Source: a virus (lineage: Duplodnaviria > Heunggongvirae > Uroviricota > Caudoviricetes). From it: DNA of 5,910 nt. Positions within the stretch are counted from its first letter, which is position 1. The number at the start of each line of letters is the position of its first letter. Location: the IMG/VR virus record IMGVR_UViG_2690316166_000002; one strand, 5' to 3'. Below are positions 1 through 5,774 of this stretch, in pieces. A model generated the notes under the pieces. It saw only the letters and a list, made by a program, of their open reading frames with translations. It was not told the origin of the DNA and did no database searches. A program made the position numbers and the translations under genes.

Positions 1-1354
<1,354 letters not shown>

Positions 1355-1405: not shown

Positions 1406-1570
1406 ATGAAATCTAATGAACGTACTTTCAATAGTACCAGTACTAACCCATTCAGTATTAGCGGAAAAGAAACAATTGGAATGAAGAAAAGGATTTACAG
1501 GAGTAAGAGCTATGGCACAGGGATTACAATGTTGGAATGCAGCGGGTGTATTAGTAGTAGATCTGACTGA
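1406..1570 (+). CDS. Possible small ORF (54 aa) overlapping the start of the next gene; doubtful
   Basis: ATG at 1406 is preceded by AAGGA (1393..1397) at good spacing and runs to TGA 1568..1570 (MKSNERTFNSTSTNPFSISGKETIGMKKRIYRSKSYGTGITMLECSGCISSRSD). It overlaps the 1512 gene by 59 nt in another frame and has no recognisable motif, so it may simply be leader sequence. Confidence 0.2.
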   Translation: MKSNERTFNSTSTNPFSISGKETIGMKKRIYRSKSYGTGITMLECSGCISSRSD

Positions 1571-1808
1571 TTATAACATACGTTTTATGGGTACTTATAC
1601 TGTCAAGGCTACTTCTGCACAGACCTATACTGTATCAGTACCAAATATGAAAACTACAGGCTGGTTTGTACACTATGCCCCCGCCAGTGATACCTTTAAT
1701 GAGTGGTCAGCCTTTTGTAATAATGGGTCATTTACTGCGGTTTATTTGCCAACATATGCACCGTTAGCTGGTAACTACACTTTTAACGTATATAAGTGGA
1801 CGGCGTAA
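1512..1808 (+). CDS. Hypothetical protein (98 aa), paralogue of the next gene, in the tail-fibre region
   Basis: ATG 1512 is preceded by AGGAG (1499..1503) at about 8 nt, and there is an in-frame stop upstream at 1482..1484. Stop is TAA 1806..1808. The N-terminus MAQGLQCWNAAGVLVVDLTD matches the N-terminus of the 1810 gene, MAGFEVYNSAGALTIDSTN. Confidence 0.7.
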   Translation: MAQGLQCWNAAGVLVVDLTDYNIRFMGTYTVKATSAQTYTVSVPNMKTTGWFVHYAPASDTFNEWSAFCNNGSFTAVYLPTYAPLAGNYTFNVYKWTA

Positions 1809-1809
1809 G

Positions 1810-2466
1810 ATGGCAGGTTTCGAGGTATATAATTCAGCGGGTGCACTGACTATAGATAGTACTAACAAGTCGATAATGACGGGTGCAGTAAAGGCCATGG
1901 GAAATCTAACTGATACGGGATACTACACAGGCTTTACCTGTGCCTTCGGTAATGGTGGATCGCTCGGTTTCGTTATGCCATCAGTAGTAGCTAACAGGAA
2001 CACAACACAGTACTGGTTCCAGATACAGAAAGACGGGGCATGGTGTTTCCCTGGTGCCTATATGTTCCAGCCTGGCATGGGCAGGTTCATGACAAGTAGT
2101 CACACGGCTACCCCCACATCTGGTTTTCTTGATGTGTTCAGTGAAGAAGGTACTTTAATCTGGTCTGCTGCATCAGCGGCAACAATGCCACGTATCAGGG
2201 GATTTTTGACAGCACCTGCGGCTACCGATCTCAGTACTGCCATTACGGTAACGTCTCCAGTAGCTGATCCCTGGTTCTGCTGGTCACAATGTCCGGGGAA
2301 CATATCAGATGATGGTACAGTAATTGGGTACTCTGGTCTGGTTATCAGGCGTAATTCCAGTACTTCATTCAGTCTACAGTACGTTTCAAAGAACCAGAAA
2401 ACCTACCGCCAGGCAATGGGGAATAATGGTATCCAGATAGCATTGGCGACATTTACAGGGTATTAA
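1810..2466 (+). CDS. Hypothetical protein (218 aa), paralogue of the previous gene with an internal repeat of the shared motif
   Basis: ATG 1810 lies one base after the upstream stop, suggesting translational coupling. Stop is TAA 2464..2466. The N-terminal motif G-F-E-V-Y-N-S-A-G-A-L-T-I-D recurs internally as GFLDVFSEEGTLIWS (about 2122..2166). At the DNA level the 9-mer cagcgggtg sits at the equivalent position in both genes (1541..1549 and 1836..1844). No signal peptide or transmembrane segment is apparent. Confidence 0.75.
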   Translation: MAGFEVYNSAGALTIDSTNKSIMTGAVKAMGNLTDTGYYTGFTCAFGNGGSLGFVMPSVVANRNTTQYWFQIQKDGAWCFPGAYMFQPGMGRFMTSSHTATPTSGFLDVFSEEGTLIWSAASAATMPRIRGFLTAPAATDLSTAITVTSPVADPWFCWSQCPGNISDDGTVIGYSGLVIRRNSSTSFSLQYVSKNQKTYRQAMGNNGIQIALATFTGY

Positions 2467-2467
2467 T

Positions 2468-2491
2468 ACAATAACAATAACAATAACAACA
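2468..2491. repeat. Short hexanucleotide tandem repeat (ACAATA)x3 plus ACAACA in the intergenic spacer
   Basis: Read directly: acaataacaataacaataacaaca, between the stop at 2466 and the RBS/ATG at 2505. Confidence 0.4.
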
Positions 2492-2504
2492 AAGGGATTT
2501 CAGT

Positions 2505-2566
2505 ATGGATATCGGTGCTATTTTAGCTCTTGTTATTTCTGGATGCGTATTCCTTTATACTATCTT
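2505..2566 (+). CDS. Start of a gene with a hydrophobic N-terminal segment (candidate membrane protein; holin-like is speculative); rest masked
   Basis: ATG 2505 is preceded by AAGGGA (about 2492..2497). The visible N-terminus MDIGAILALVISGCVFLYTI is hydrophobic and consistent with a transmembrane helix or signal anchor. The remainder falls in N block 2567..2977, so length and stop are unknown; the track's 203-aa ORF is inflated by N-to-X translation. Confidence 0.4.
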
Positions 2567-2977
2567 NNNNNNNNNNNNNNNNNNNNNNNNNNNNNNNNNN
2601 NNNNNNNNNNNNNNNNNNNNNNNNNNNNNNNNNNNNNNNNNNNNNNNNNNNNNNNNNNNNNNNNNNNNNNNNNNNNNNNNNNNNNNNNNNNNNNNNNNNN
2701 NNNNNNNNNNNNNNNNNNNNNNNNNNNNNNNNNNNNNNNNNNNNNNNNNNNNNNNNNNNNNNNNNNNNNNNNNNNNNNNNNNNNNNNNNNNNNNNNNNNN
2801 NNNNNNNNNNNNNNNNNNNNNNNNNNNNNNNNNNNNNNNNNNNNNNNNNNNNNNNNNNNNNNNNNNNNNNNNNNNNNNNNNNNNNNNNNNNNNNNNNNNN
2901 NNNNNNNNNNNNNNNNNNNNNNNNNNNNNNNNNNNNNNNNNNNNNNNNNNNNNNNNNNNNNNNNNNNNNNNNNNNNN

Positions 2978-3112
2978 ATGTGCTTTCAGGGCTGCTAACA
3001 TCTTACGGAATTTCTTCACCCCGCCAATACCTAACTGGAAGGTCATGATAATAATAAAATCATNNNNNNNNNNNNNNNNNNNNNNNNNNNNNNNNNNNNN
3101 NATCGGGAAGAT
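2978..3112 (-). CDS. Continuation of the lysozyme (C-terminal lobe) in a different minus-strand frame; true 3' end hidden in N block 2567..2977
   Basis: The minus-strand frame with codon 3046..3044 is open from 3112 down into the mask and reads ...DFIIIMTFQLGIGGVKKFRKMLAALKAH, which aligns with T4 lysozyme ...[30 protein letters not shown]. It is offset by one nucleotide from the N-terminal frame; the change of frame must occur in or beside the 38-nt N block 3064..3101. Confidence 0.55.
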
Positions 3113-3359
3113 TTAACCCTAATGTCTGTACCTGCATAATTGTTTTGGCTAAATCGCGAGATAGTAACTTGTCTGCTTCGCTTTCAGTAATGCCAGTACT
3201 AAAATCTTCTCCCGCCTGAATTAAGTGACCATATCCAATAGTACTACATCCTAAACTATCAGCATATGGATAGAATTTCCCATTTCTGAAGTACTTCAAA
3301 TTTGCCTGATACTCTTTAGTACCTTCATATTCTTTTAATCGTGTTTTTAAATCGCTCAT
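3060..3359 (-). CDS. T4-type lysozyme (GH24 endolysin), N-terminal catalytic portion
   Basis: Minus-strand ORF from ATG (3359..3357) reads MSDLKTRLKEYEGTKEYQANLKYFRNGKFYPYADSLGCSTIGYGHLIQAGEDFSTGITESEADKLLSRDLAKTIMQVQTLGLNLPD. This carries the GH24 signature: Glu in LKEYEG, Asp in YAD and Thr in STIGYGH, corresponding to T4 lysozyme E11/D20/T26, and ITESEADKLLSRDL parallels T4 ITKDEAEKLFNQDV. In this frame a TGA stop falls at 3062..3060 right after the N block, giving only about 99 aa, which is too short for a complete GH24 enzyme. Confidence 0.8.
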   Translation of the reverse strand: MSDLKTRLKEYEGTKEYQANLKYFRNGKFYPYADSLGCSTIGYGHLIQAGEDFSTGITESEADKLLSRDLAKTIMQVQTLGLNLPDXXXXXXXXXXXXX

Positions 3360-3369
3360 TTACTAAATA

Positions 3370-3388
3370 CCTATAATGAATTTATAGG
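3370..3388. promoter_or_regulatory. Inverted repeat with an embedded TATAAT in the divergent intergenic region; candidate bidirectional promoter or operator
   Basis: cctataa-tgaat-ttatagg is a 7-bp perfect inverted repeat with a 5-nt spacer. TATAAT lies at 3372..3377 on the + strand, about 19 nt upstream of ATG 3396; on the - strand the same region reads TATAAAT upstream of the lysozyme ATG at 3359. No clear -35 was found. Confidence 0.3.
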
Positions 3389-3395
3389 AATATTT

Positions 3396-3830
3396 ATGAT
3401 GAGTGAATGGAAATACTCGGATGATTGGAGCGAGGAGGAAATGTTATCCGGTGAATATGCTGGTTTCGTTTATATCTTTCAGTTTGAGGATGGTTCTAAT
3501 TATGTCGGTGCTAAGCAAATCTATCAGCGGGTTAAGGATGCGAGAAAGCTAAAGCCCACTTCAAAGGAAAATGGCTGGCGTGAGTACCTCAGTAGTTCCA
3601 ATGTCGTTAAAAACAAAATTGAAAATGGTGAACAGTACTCAAAAACGATTCTATGGTGCTTCGCAACTATGCGAGAGGTAATGATTGTAGAGGCAATACT
3701 GATCCTTCATCAGATGCTTAAACCGGAATGTTTGAATCTGGCAATGATGAGTAAGATTAGATCACCAAATGCAAAGGATAAAAAAAGACTACTCGGAATA
3801 GTACAGGAACTATTGGAGTACTTGAATTGA
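3396..3830 (+). CDS. GIY-YIG-like nuclease-domain protein (144 aa), possibly a homing-endonuclease relative lacking a DNA-binding domain
   Basis: ATG 3396 is preceded by AGGAA (3386..3390). Residues GFVYIFQFEDGSNYVGAKQIYQR fit the GIY...(10-11 aa)...YIG pattern with a following Arg at about +7, comparable to I-TevI GIYQIK...KVYVGSAKDFEKR. Downstream, MREVMIVEA and LN could correspond to the catalytic Glu and Asn. This is motif-level recognition only. Stop is TGA 3828..3830. Confidence 0.6.
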   Translation: MMSEWKYSDDWSEEEMLSGEYAGFVYIFQFEDGSNYVGAKQIYQRVKDARKLKPTSKENGWREYLSSSNVVKNKIENGEQYSKTILWCFATMREVMIVEAILILHQMLKPECLNLAMMSKIRSPNAKDKKRLLGIVQELLEYLN

Positions 3831-3839
3831 GGTAAATAT

Positions 3840-4418
3840 ATGGCAAGTGGAATAAATGGGATTGGTAGTATAAGGAACTATATACAAACGCAGGGAGTTA
3901 GATTAAATAATCAATTCCAGAATGAAATAATTAAACGTTCCAAGCTACTATCCCAAAGAATGCAGGGTGATTTGAATAATAGCGTTGACCGTGGGGCAGT
4001 GGGCTTTACTCAACGTTCCATCCTTTTCTTCTATAGAAAGGTTGGGAGAAATTCAGTTACATCGACCATCATGGTTAAAGATATTCAGGCTAAGTACCTT
4101 TATCAAGTACTGGTACAGCCAAAGGCAATTGATAAGTTTATACCTACTTCATCTACAAGATTAACTAAGCAGGGCAACATTTCAGGACTGAAAAAGAATC
4201 TTTTAAGTGAACGATATAAGGTAGTGAAGGGTAAGAATGGTAAAGAACGATTAATTGATACCGCAAAGAAAGATACCAAGAAGAAAACCAAACGTGTAAT
4301 TGGCTTACGTGAGAAGAAACAACGTCGCCTTATCTATGACTTCTATAAGGAAGCCAATGATGGTGTAAGGGTAATTATGAGCGGTATTCAGGGAACATTC
4401 AGGATAAGTAGACAATGA
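3840..4418 (+). CDS. Hypothetical protein (192 aa) with a Lys/Arg-rich C-terminal half; function unknown, possibly nucleic-acid binding
   Basis: ATG 3840 is preceded by GAGG (about 3829..3832). The ORF is clean; the C-terminal half is strongly basic (KGKNGKERLIDTAKKDTKKKTKRVIGLREKKQRRL). Stop TGA 4416..4418 overlaps the next start (ATGA). Confidence 0.7.
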   Translation: MASGINGIGSIRNYIQTQGVRLNNQFQNEIIKRSKLLSQRMQGDLNNSVDRGAVGFTQRSILFFYRKVGRNSVTSTIMVKDIQAKYLYQVLVQPKAIDKFIPTSSTRLTKQGNISGLKKNLLSERYKVVKGKNGKERLIDTAKKDTKKKTKRVIGLREKKQRRLIYDFYKEANDGVRVIMSGIQGTFRISRQ

Positions 4419-4768: not shown

Positions 4769-4804
4769 NNNNNNNNNNNNNNNNNNNNNNNNNNNNNNNN
4801 NNTT

Positions 4805-4921: not shown

Positions 4922-5774
4922 NNNNNNNNNNNNNNNNNNNNNNNNNNNNNNNNNNNNNNNNNNNNNNNNNNNNNNNNNNNNNNNNNNNNNNNNNNNNNNN
5001 NNNNNNNNNNNNNNNNNNNNNNNNNNNNNNNNNNNNNNNNNNNNNNNNNNNNNNNNNNNNNNNNNNNNNNNNNNNNNNNNNNNNNNNNNNNNNNNNNNNN
5101 NNNNNNNNNNNNNNNNNNNNNNNNNNNNNNNNNNNNNNNNNNNNNNNNNNNNNNNNNNNNNNNNNNNNNNNNNNNNNNNNNNNNNNNNNNNNNNNNNNNN
5201 NNNNNNNNNNNNNNNNNNNNNNNNNNNNNNNNNNNNNNNNNNNNNNNNNNNNNNNNNNNNNNNNNNNNNNNNNNNNNNNNNNNNNNNNNNNNNNNNNNNN
5301 NNNNNNNNNNNNNNNNNNNNNNNNNNNNNNNNNNNNNNNNNNNNNNNANNNNNNNNNNNNNNNNNNNNNNNNNNNNNNNNNNNNNNNNNNNNNNNNNNNN
5401 NNNNNNNNNNNNNNNNNNNNNNNNNNNNNNNNNNNNNNNNNNNNNNNNNNNNNNNNNNNNNNNNNNNNNNNNNNNNNNNNNNNNNNNNNNNNNNNNNNNN
5501 NNNNNNNNNNNNNNNNNNNNNNNNNNNNNNNNNNNNNNNNNNNNNNNNNNNNNNNNNNNNNNNNNNNNNNNNNNNNNNNNNNNNNNNNNNNNNNNNNNNN
5601 NNNNNNNNNNNNNNNNNNNNNNNNNNNNNNNNNNNNNNNNNNNNNNNNNNNNNNNNNNNNNNNNNNNNNNNNNNNNNNNNNNNNNNNNNNNNNNNNNNNN
5701 NNNNNNNNNNNNNNNNNNNNNNNNNNNNNNNNNNNNNNNNNNNNNNNNNNNNNNNNNNNNNNNNNNNNNNNNNN

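Follow-up and report, generated by a model that had tools for sequence, protein, structure and literature searches.

A conserved gene pair behind the central tail fibre gene of a Shigella and Escherichia coli prophage as a probable receptor-binding module

Two short genes located directly behind the tail fibre gene of a prophage raise the question of whether they take part in the recognition of the host. The genes lie on a stretch of 5,910 nucleotides (hereafter the window) from a virus of the class Caudoviricetes (IMG/VR record IMGVR_UViG_2690316166_000002), in which they follow the 3' part of a gene for a lambda J-like central tail fibre (1..1354, plus strand; Pfam Phage_Tail_Tip, E = 8e-23; PHROG central tail fibre J). 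Open reading frame 1 (ORF1; 1512..1808, plus strand) codes for 98 amino acids and ORF2 (1810..2466, plus strand) for 218 amino acids, and an earlier sequence-only reading of the window had given coordinates and lengths of both genes exactly. That reading had proposed, from position, a host-range module in the form of an adhesin tip or a receptor-specificity accessory. The proposal gained support from homologues in YncD-dependent phages, from a receptor-binding protein (RBP) as fold neighbour and from an analogous module in phage DEV.

Taken together, the results lead us to conclude that ORF1 and ORF2 are probably late structural proteins of the tail tip, which would form a terminal receptor-binding complex with the tip of the J trimer, ORF1 being the adaptor and ORF2 the RBP. 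According to the proposed mechanism, both proteins would be made along with the late tail genes and would bind the J trimer tip with one copy each, by analogy with DEV. ORF2 would offer a receptor-binding surface to an outer-membrane protein and would commit the phage to irreversible adsorption. ORF1 would lock ORF2 onto J and might also touch the receptor.

Gene order, families and predicted folds

The stop codon of ORF1 (TAA, 1806-1808) and the start codon of ORF2 (ATG, 1810) are separated by a single base, a tight coupling that had been recognised in the sequence-only reading as well. A Shine-Dalgarno sequence (AGGAG, 1499..1503, plus strand), read from the sequence, is located 8 nt 5' of the ORF1 ATG. 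The distance between the J stop codon and the ORF1 start is 157 nt in the window, and the two genes overlap in phage HK639. No terminator-like sites were found in the region 1250-2560 and promoter-like sites in this region were not above chance, which is consistent with co-transcription of the pair with J. By inspection, both proteins are devoid of a signal peptide, a membrane segment and a lipobox; a dedicated predictor was not run. The spacer between J and ORF1 contains a 54-aa ORF (1406-1570), which overlaps the ORF1 start and appears among the gene calls of some assemblies (L005, L007, L008). This ORF is probably spurious.

The family of the proteins had not been recognised from the sequence. 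ORF2 belongs to the Pfam family DUF8377 (PF28254), as obtained from the precomputed annotation of an identical 218-aa protein, and also to phrog_4524. The DUF8377 annotation is present on all 77 ORF2 homologues, some of which are annotated with N-terminal extensions (P0003, 255 aa). No mention of PF28254 was found in the literature. ORF1 was assigned to phrog_7961 (E = 9e-16) and has no Pfam family. Its own family comprises 111 clusters, nearly all of which are stand-alone proteins of 90-108 aa. Searches of NCBIfam and PADLOC yielded no matches for either protein.

The AlphaFold2 (AF2) model of ORF1 (predicted local distance difference test score, pLDDT, of 84.3) starts with a beta-hairpin (residues 6-8/14-17), which is followed by a six-strand beta-sandwich. 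The model of ORF2 (pLDDT 86.8) consists of two all-beta domains, both led by a hairpin. The only clear structural match of this model is to a phage RBP of solved structure; a Foldseek search of the ORF2 model against the PDB gave no significant match. A sequence search of the PDB with the ORF2 family profile yielded no match, and the same search with the ORF1 family profile yielded weak matches to antibody heavy-chain variable (VH) domains alone, which were regarded as noise. The lowest-entropy block of the C-terminal domain of ORF2 is CPGNISDDG (residues 161-169; 2290..2316, plus strand). The ORF1 family profile also matches tandem stretches in giant proteins (P0171, P0175, P0196, P0222 and others; up to 3878 aa, 11 stretches). 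These profile matches suggest that the ORF1 body (residues ~27-97) may resemble an immunoglobulin-like adhesin repeat, or that the matches to giant proteins and VH domains are compositional.

Hairpin motif and fibre tip peptide

Both proteins open with a short motif, which takes the form G-φ-x-φ-aromatic-[D/N]-x-x-G-x-φ-x-φ-D (φ, hydrophobic) in phages BcepGomr, LIT1, Psymv2 and MK21. The motif spans residues 4-19 of ORF1 (GLQCWNAAGVLVVDLT; 1521..1568, plus strand) and residues 3-18 of ORF2 (GFEVYNSAGALTIDST; 1816..1863, plus strand), the latter within a conserved block of residues 1-20. The first 27 residues of ORF1 are nearly invariant across its family. The common 9-mer cagcgggtg, which had been noticed before, does occupy equivalent codons of the two genes (N-x-A-G-x). 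When the N-termini of ORF1 and ORF2 were compared by pairwise BLASTP, the similarity was not significant (E = 5.4). Profile-profile comparison with hhalign, based on family alignments of 16 sequences for ORF1 and 30 sequences for ORF2, aligned residues 1-19 with E = 1.1e-5 and a probability of 82%. With the N-terminal half of ORF2 alone, the ORF1 family yielded E = 4.6e-6. The related N-termini described in the sequence-only reading are hence borne out by family profiles, but not by pairwise alignment.

Beyond ~19 residues nothing aligns between the two families with hhalign, so that paralogy is demonstrated for the motif only. Judged from these alignments, the demonstrably shared part is a motif of ~17-19 residues and the term 'paralogous genes' is an overstatement. 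The idea of a duplicated and diverging pair stands as far as the shared N-terminal motif is concerned; the arrangement as such is ancient and widely conserved and does not reflect a recent duplication.

The second domain of ORF2 opens with a third copy of the motif (residues 105-120, GFLDVFSEEGTLIWSA; 2122..2169, plus strand) within the conserved block 101-130. The sequence-only reading had placed it at about 2122..2166. By sequence this copy is weak (hhalign, E = 0.003), and the internal copy of the window protein itself scores poorly with a position-specific scoring matrix (PSSM), which was trained on N-termini only. In six of eight large proteins, the best internal match of the PSSM falls at residue 102-115, with p <= 0.006 in four of them (XC38, LIT1, Psymv2 and MK21). 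The columns of the internal motif are among the most conserved of the ORF2 family, and the AF2 models show hairpins at residues 5-7/13-16 and 108-110/116-119 of ORF2 that are equivalent to the one at the N-terminus of ORF1. At the family level, the internal copy is real.

A further conserved element was found at the end of the fibre. The last 26 residues of J (1274..1351, plus strand), proposed here as the docking site of ORF1 and ORF2, are the most conserved part of J over the 60 loci with a full-length J. The mean pairwise identity across these loci is 75% for the J tip and 40-50% for the J body. For ORF1, the values are 69% for residues 1-27 and 39% for the body, and for ORF2 they are 73% for residues 1-20, 69% for residues 101-130 and 49-55% for the domain bodies. 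Within the module, variability is highest in the ORF1 body, for which the identity between the window and phage Bas11 is 16%. Hypervariability, which the sequence-only reading had considered for the homologues, applies to the domain bodies and above all to the ORF1 body, but taken as a whole, the pair does not exceed the J body in variability. The conserved islands are the tip of J and the three hairpins, a pattern that fits a common docking interface amid diversifying surfaces. A resemblance of the J tip itself to the hairpin motif is suggestive only: the match lies at the right position in six of nine fibres, with weak scores (p = 0.02-0.44), and the tips are mutually homologous.

The tip peptide, ORF1 and ORF2 are inherited together in a fixed order. 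The tip is nearly the same in every phage with the pair and differs in Rtp43 and lambda J. Among 91 loci from phage records, prophages and viral contigs, the DUF8377 gene is directly preceded by an ORF1-family gene in 90, with a gap of -4 to +12 nt where the starts were correctly called; the sole locus that lacks ORF1 is a decayed remnant. Of the 91 loci, 81 have a J-like gene next to the pair, either upstream on the same strand (78) or convergent (3). In the converse analysis, which started from the DNA pattern of the tip peptide alone, a small and a large gene were found directly downstream in 96 of 102 evaluable viral loci.

The tip peptide is present in 362 phage records from many Proteobacteria. 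Apart from Acinetobacter podovirus XC38, six tip-bearing records were examined. The pair directly follows J in Burkholderia phage BcepGomr (94 and 220 aa) and Psychrobacter phage Psymv2 (97 and 239 aa) and is found after the fibre of the Pseudomonas podovirus LIT1 (99 and 223 aa). In Xanthomonas phage MK21 (99 and 228 aa), a homing endonuclease gene and a gene with a fibre domain lie between J and the pair. Vibrio phage pVa-3 carries a single gene of 364 aa after the fibre (L099 3081-4175) and no separate small gene, and the record of Ralstonia phage YO089_1 has no annotation.

In XC38 (NC_055823.1, 1-5657), a tail protein of 2479 aa ends in the same tip, and behind its gene lie an ORF1-like gene (E = 2.7e-9) and then an ORF2-like gene (E = 3e-27). 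The match to ORF2 stops at residue 135, just past the internal motif; beyond this point the protein continues with a different C-terminal domain. The tip, ORF1 and the N-terminal half of ORF2 are conserved in XC38 and the C-terminal domain of ORF2 is replaced. XC38 and LIT1 (1798-4051) are N4-like podoviruses, in which tip peptide, small protein and large protein are arranged as at the siphovirus J locus. The annotated ORF1-like gene of XC38 has a hydrophobic N-terminal extension of ~28 residues, which may reflect a miscalled start.

Known receptor-binding systems and alternative roles

Full-length ORF2 homologues were found by tblastn in 55 phage records with ~30-45% identity, including Drexlerviridae as well as lambdoid/Hendrixvirinae temperate phages of Escherichia, Klebsiella, Cronobacter and Enterobacter. 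ORF2 shares 36-37% identity at 100% coverage with its counterparts in phages JohannLBurckhardt (Bas11), Henu7 and IME347, and 40-41.5% identity with those of the temperate phages LMessi and Eeyore. The pair is located downstream of J on the same strand in HK639 and KW1E_UTAR and is convergent with J in NBD2 and JohannLBurckhardt. Relative to J, bas11_0024 of JohannLBurckhardt and its equivalents in Henu7 and IME347 occupy the same slot as rtp44/rtp45 of phage Rtp, where rtp45 and rtp44 code for an exclusion factor and an LptD-binding RBP, respectively.

This slot is linked to receptor specificity in coliphages. In the study of the BASEL collection, cassettes adjacent to gpJ were described as 'bona fide RBP loci', the alleles of which match the terminal receptor (PMC8594841). 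Phages Bas10, Bas11 and IME347 are YncD-dependent, and they either carry the DUF8377 cassette or are close relatives of matching phages. A recent preprint (bioRxiv 10.64898/2026.04.02.716166) names a YncD-specific RBP family together with an accessory protein or two at the gpJ-adjacent locus, gives CDS_0024 as RBP for both Bas10 and Bas11 and predicts YncD as receptor for the temperate phages Eeyore and LMessi.

The window pair resembles this YncD-associated locus of Drexlerviridae and Hendrixvirinae in its ORF2 protein (36-41% identity over the full length), in the ORF1 partner directly upstream and in the J tip, and it shares the orientation after J with the temperate members. Drexlerviridae differ in that the cassette is convergent with J and contains a third gene with a signal peptide, which is missing from the window. 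The product of this third gene (~110 aa; L010 6726-7058, bas11_0023; L002 5729-6061, NBD2 gp64) carries what looks like a cleavable signal peptide (MKKIMLAMALVAPLNAMA) and is a candidate superinfection-exclusion factor. The domain bodies of the window proteins share no more than 16-33% identity with those of Bas11, a proven YncD phage, so that the receptor of the window allele may differ from YncD. For the family, YncD is the most plausible candidate, and it is possibly the receptor of the window allele.

An experimentally studied counterpart of the pair is found in Pseudomonas phage DEV (Schitoviridae), a close relative of LIT1, in which a three-gene module was identified as a receptor-binding fibre by genetics and by low-resolution cryo-electron microscopy with AlphaFold3 modelling. 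In DEV, the gpJ-like short fibre gp56 is transcribed together with gp55 and gp54, and none of the three genes is dispensable; gp54 is the LptD-binding RBP and gp55 an essential adaptor (PMC12892993). Suppressor mutations in gp54 restore growth on an lptD mutant. In focused cryo-electron microscopy at 8.5 Å, a density of elongated shape was seen next to the tail tube. An AlphaFold3 model of gp56-gp55-gp54 was docked into this density, with the gp54/gp55 end being largely disordered at this resolution (PMC12892993). AlphaFold3 predicted three copies of gp56 with one each of gp55 and gp54 (interface predicted template modelling score of 0.8). For gp54 and gp55, the orthologues in LIT1 are reported as structural proteins of the virion, and the authors of the DEV study proposed that the three genes are a module spread by horizontal transfer (PMC12892993).

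The fibres of the two systems are homologous: residues 179-425 of LIT1 gp56 align with residues 846-1098 of J up to the tip peptide (27% identity, E = 3e-21). Order and coupling of the genes (fibre, small, large) are the same, and the sizes of the two downstream proteins are similar (99/223 aa in LIT1, 98/218 aa here). Both downstream proteins start with the hairpin motif, and the internal copy lies at residue 115 as compared to 105 here. On the other hand, the short fibre of DEV is that of a podovirus, sits beside the tail plug and serves LptD as receptor, whereas the fibre here is a siphovirus J. The DEV genes overlap, while J and ORF1 are spaced apart in the window. Beyond the motif, gp55 and gp54 are not detectably similar to ORF1 and ORF2, and the hhalign comparisons gave weak values for gp55 with the ORF1 family (in register, E = 0.016) and for gp54 with the ORF2 family (motif only, E = 0.018). 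Equivalence of the proteins is therefore based on the homologous fibre tip, the gene order, the sizes and the layout of the motifs. For a 3:1:1 complex at the fibre tip of the window prophage, the joint conservation of J tip and hairpins would provide indirect support only.

Two further systems were compared. The LptD-binding RBP of Rtp44/Oekolampad type, which occurs in small siphophages (PDB 9rpt, PMC12685063), is a single chain of the Pfam family DUF6453; its partner is the lipoprotein exclusion factor Rtp45, and the J tip of Rtp differs. Comparison of the DUF8377 and ORF1-family profiles with DUF6453 was not significant (E = 0.025-0.07) and does not place the pair in DUF6453, so that the link between these families is one of fold alone. 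An interpretation of ORF1 and ORF2 as a split DUF6453 protein was not supported on these grounds and is kept as speculation only.

Phage T5 pb5 is a monomeric RBP that sits non-covalently on the end of the trimeric pb4 fibre, binds an outer-membrane transporter and triggers irreversible adsorption. It is a much larger single protein (~640 aa) without a small adaptor partner, and no sequence or fold match to the pair was found.

A more tentative model we consider possible but rather doubtful. The tail tip might be capped by exactly three hairpin-led beta-sandwich modules, of which ORF1 would supply one and ORF2 two. Each module might dock through its N-terminal hairpin on the tip peptide of one J chain, so that the three-fold symmetry would be turned into one asymmetric receptor-binding head, and single-chain RBPs of ~310-360 aa from the same genomic slot (Rtp44/Oekolampad DUF6453, pVa-3 gp86 and P0224) might be fused versions with three modules. 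The pVa-3 protein of 364 aa and P0224 could be fused versions of the pair. P0224 (313 aa; L094 5120-6061, on a metagenomic phage-like contig) was not confirmed as an ORF1-ORF2 fusion, as only the N-terminal motif is common and the protein has no Pfam family; possible further copies of the hairpin motif were observed in it. Three motif copies in pVa-3 gp86 were likewise considered, but the PSSM supports two at most.

Other functions of the pair were weighed against a role as adaptor and RBP. The two roles may be reversed or shared, with ORF1 as the main receptor contact and ORF2 as scaffold, or with a composite surface. Such an arrangement appears unlikely, although the variability of the ORF1 body described above is what would be expected for a receptor-facing surface and the ORF1 fold resembles carbohydrate-binding and tailspike receptor-binding domains. 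In addition, DEV gp55 was predicted to lie near loop 9 of LptD, deletion of which leads to thermosensitive plating (PMC12892993). The presence of a tail-fibre gene beside the pair in HK639, KW1E_UTAR, LIT1, MK21 and pVa-3 would agree with anchoring or assembly of lateral tail fibres instead of terminal receptor binding. However, no fibre gene follows the pair in the window prophage, Psymv2, BcepGomr and XC38, and the lateral fibre gene of Drexlerviridae is found beyond the recombination genes. DEV does not need its long fibre gp53, whereas it depends on gp54 and gp55, for both of which there is a genetic tie to LptD (PMC12892993). We regard a function in lateral fibres as improbable.

The slot 3' of a fibre gene is also typical for chaperones, an option raised in the sequence-only reading, and the detection of gp55 in DEV virions by mass spectrometry was uncertain (PMC12892993). 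A role as non-structural chaperones that assemble the J fibre, in the manner of tail-fibre assembly proteins, is nevertheless highly improbable: searches of Pfam, PHROGs and NCBIfam gave no match to chaperone families, whether of Tfa type or other, and the AF2 models show stable all-beta domains with an RBP-like fold. Genes for lysogenic conversion or superinfection exclusion, expressed from the prophage, would be the last alternative. Exclusion genes are common in RBP loci (Rtp45, Cor) and the Bas11 locus includes a third gene with a signal peptide, but this exclusion candidate is a separate gene that the window lacks. The properties of ORF1 and ORF2, i.e. the lack of a signal peptide, lipobox or membrane segment by inspection, the coupling to the late tail operon without promoter-like sites above chance and the lack of PADLOC matches, make this explanation extremely improbable.

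Several points weigh against the assignment of the pair as adaptor and RBP. Ten loci carry the pair without a J-like gene within 6 kb. The assignment of YncD to the family derives from comparative genomics only, and the preprint contains no interaction model for the YncD type (bioRxiv 10.64898/2026.04.02.716166). Furthermore, the module may be inactive in Shigella sonnei because J is broken by insertion sequence (IS) elements in several genomes of this host.

With regard to the loci without J, the pairs are intact and are situated on ~110-kb plasmids of Enterobacter and Cronobacter (including NZ_CP104015.1 and NZ_CP017663.1; non-mobilizable) between a DUF4942 gene and umuC. These plasmids are possibly phage-plasmids.

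Prophage setting and implications

The prophage that matches the window is found in many genomes of S. sonnei and E. coli, where it adjoins mipA and gapA. The identical 218-aa ORF2 protein is encoded on HE616528.1, CP026802.1 and others. A search of the phage collection for near-identical DNA with positions 700-2560 returned zero matches. In intact, identical copies of the prophage, J has a length of 1100 aa; the single readable J frame in the window is the last ORF segment (791-1354), as runs of N are located upstream. Such runs occupy positions 229-314, 465-488, 2567-2977, 3064-3101, 4769-4802, 4922-5347 and 5349-5774, and their lengths are not preserved when compared to the identical prophage copy L004. 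J therefore only seemingly splits into two frames (96-509 and 791-1354), and the window does not reveal whether J is intact in its source genome.

In the chromosomes of S. sonnei concerned (L005, L006, L008 and L009), the IS elements (HTH_Tnp_1/rve) interrupt either J or the tape-measure gene. ORF1 and ORF2 stay intact and identical in these genomes. The prophage is probably decaying in S. sonnei.

Downstream of the pair, a gene for a 90-aa protein (2505-2777, masked from 2567; L004 10720-10992) lies before a lysozyme gene on the opposite strand. The protein has an N-terminal membrane segment (MDIGAILALVISGCVFLYTI), a long coiled coil and a weak match to DUF2730, and it may be related to lysis. 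It was considered as an exclusion lipoprotein due to its lipobox-like 'ISGC', but this lies inside the membrane segment; the protein is a membrane-anchored coiled coil outside the module. A gene for a SegE-like GIY-YIG endonuclease follows (3396-3830; Pfam PF19835, E = 2e-16), and the best PHROG match of the lysozyme fragment beside it is a baseplate hub/tail lysozyme (phrog_13211). The combination of a SegE-like gene with a lysozyme of baseplate-hub type is unusual for a lambdoid prophage.

The assignment proposed here does not overturn current understanding. Modules of this type have been known in other phages since 2021, and the window pair is an additional member. Reading the hairpin motif as a docking element is new and unproven. 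The analysis joins three literatures that were treated separately, namely those on the RBP loci of the BASEL phages, on DUF8377 and on the receptor-binding fibre of DEV. For DUF8377 proteins and their partners of ~100 aa, the designation 'tail-tip RBP plus adaptor' would be better founded than 'hypothetical protein'. In the widespread prophage family of Shigella and E. coli, the choice of outer-membrane protein is probably determined by the pair. If the tip peptide and the hairpins constitute the docking interface, they would mark the points at which receptor-binding heads can be exchanged between siphoviruses and N4-like podoviruses, which could be used in host-range prediction and phage engineering. 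Should the reading with three docking modules be true, seemingly unrelated RBP families would share one ancestral architecture, with a docking rule usable for receptor swaps.

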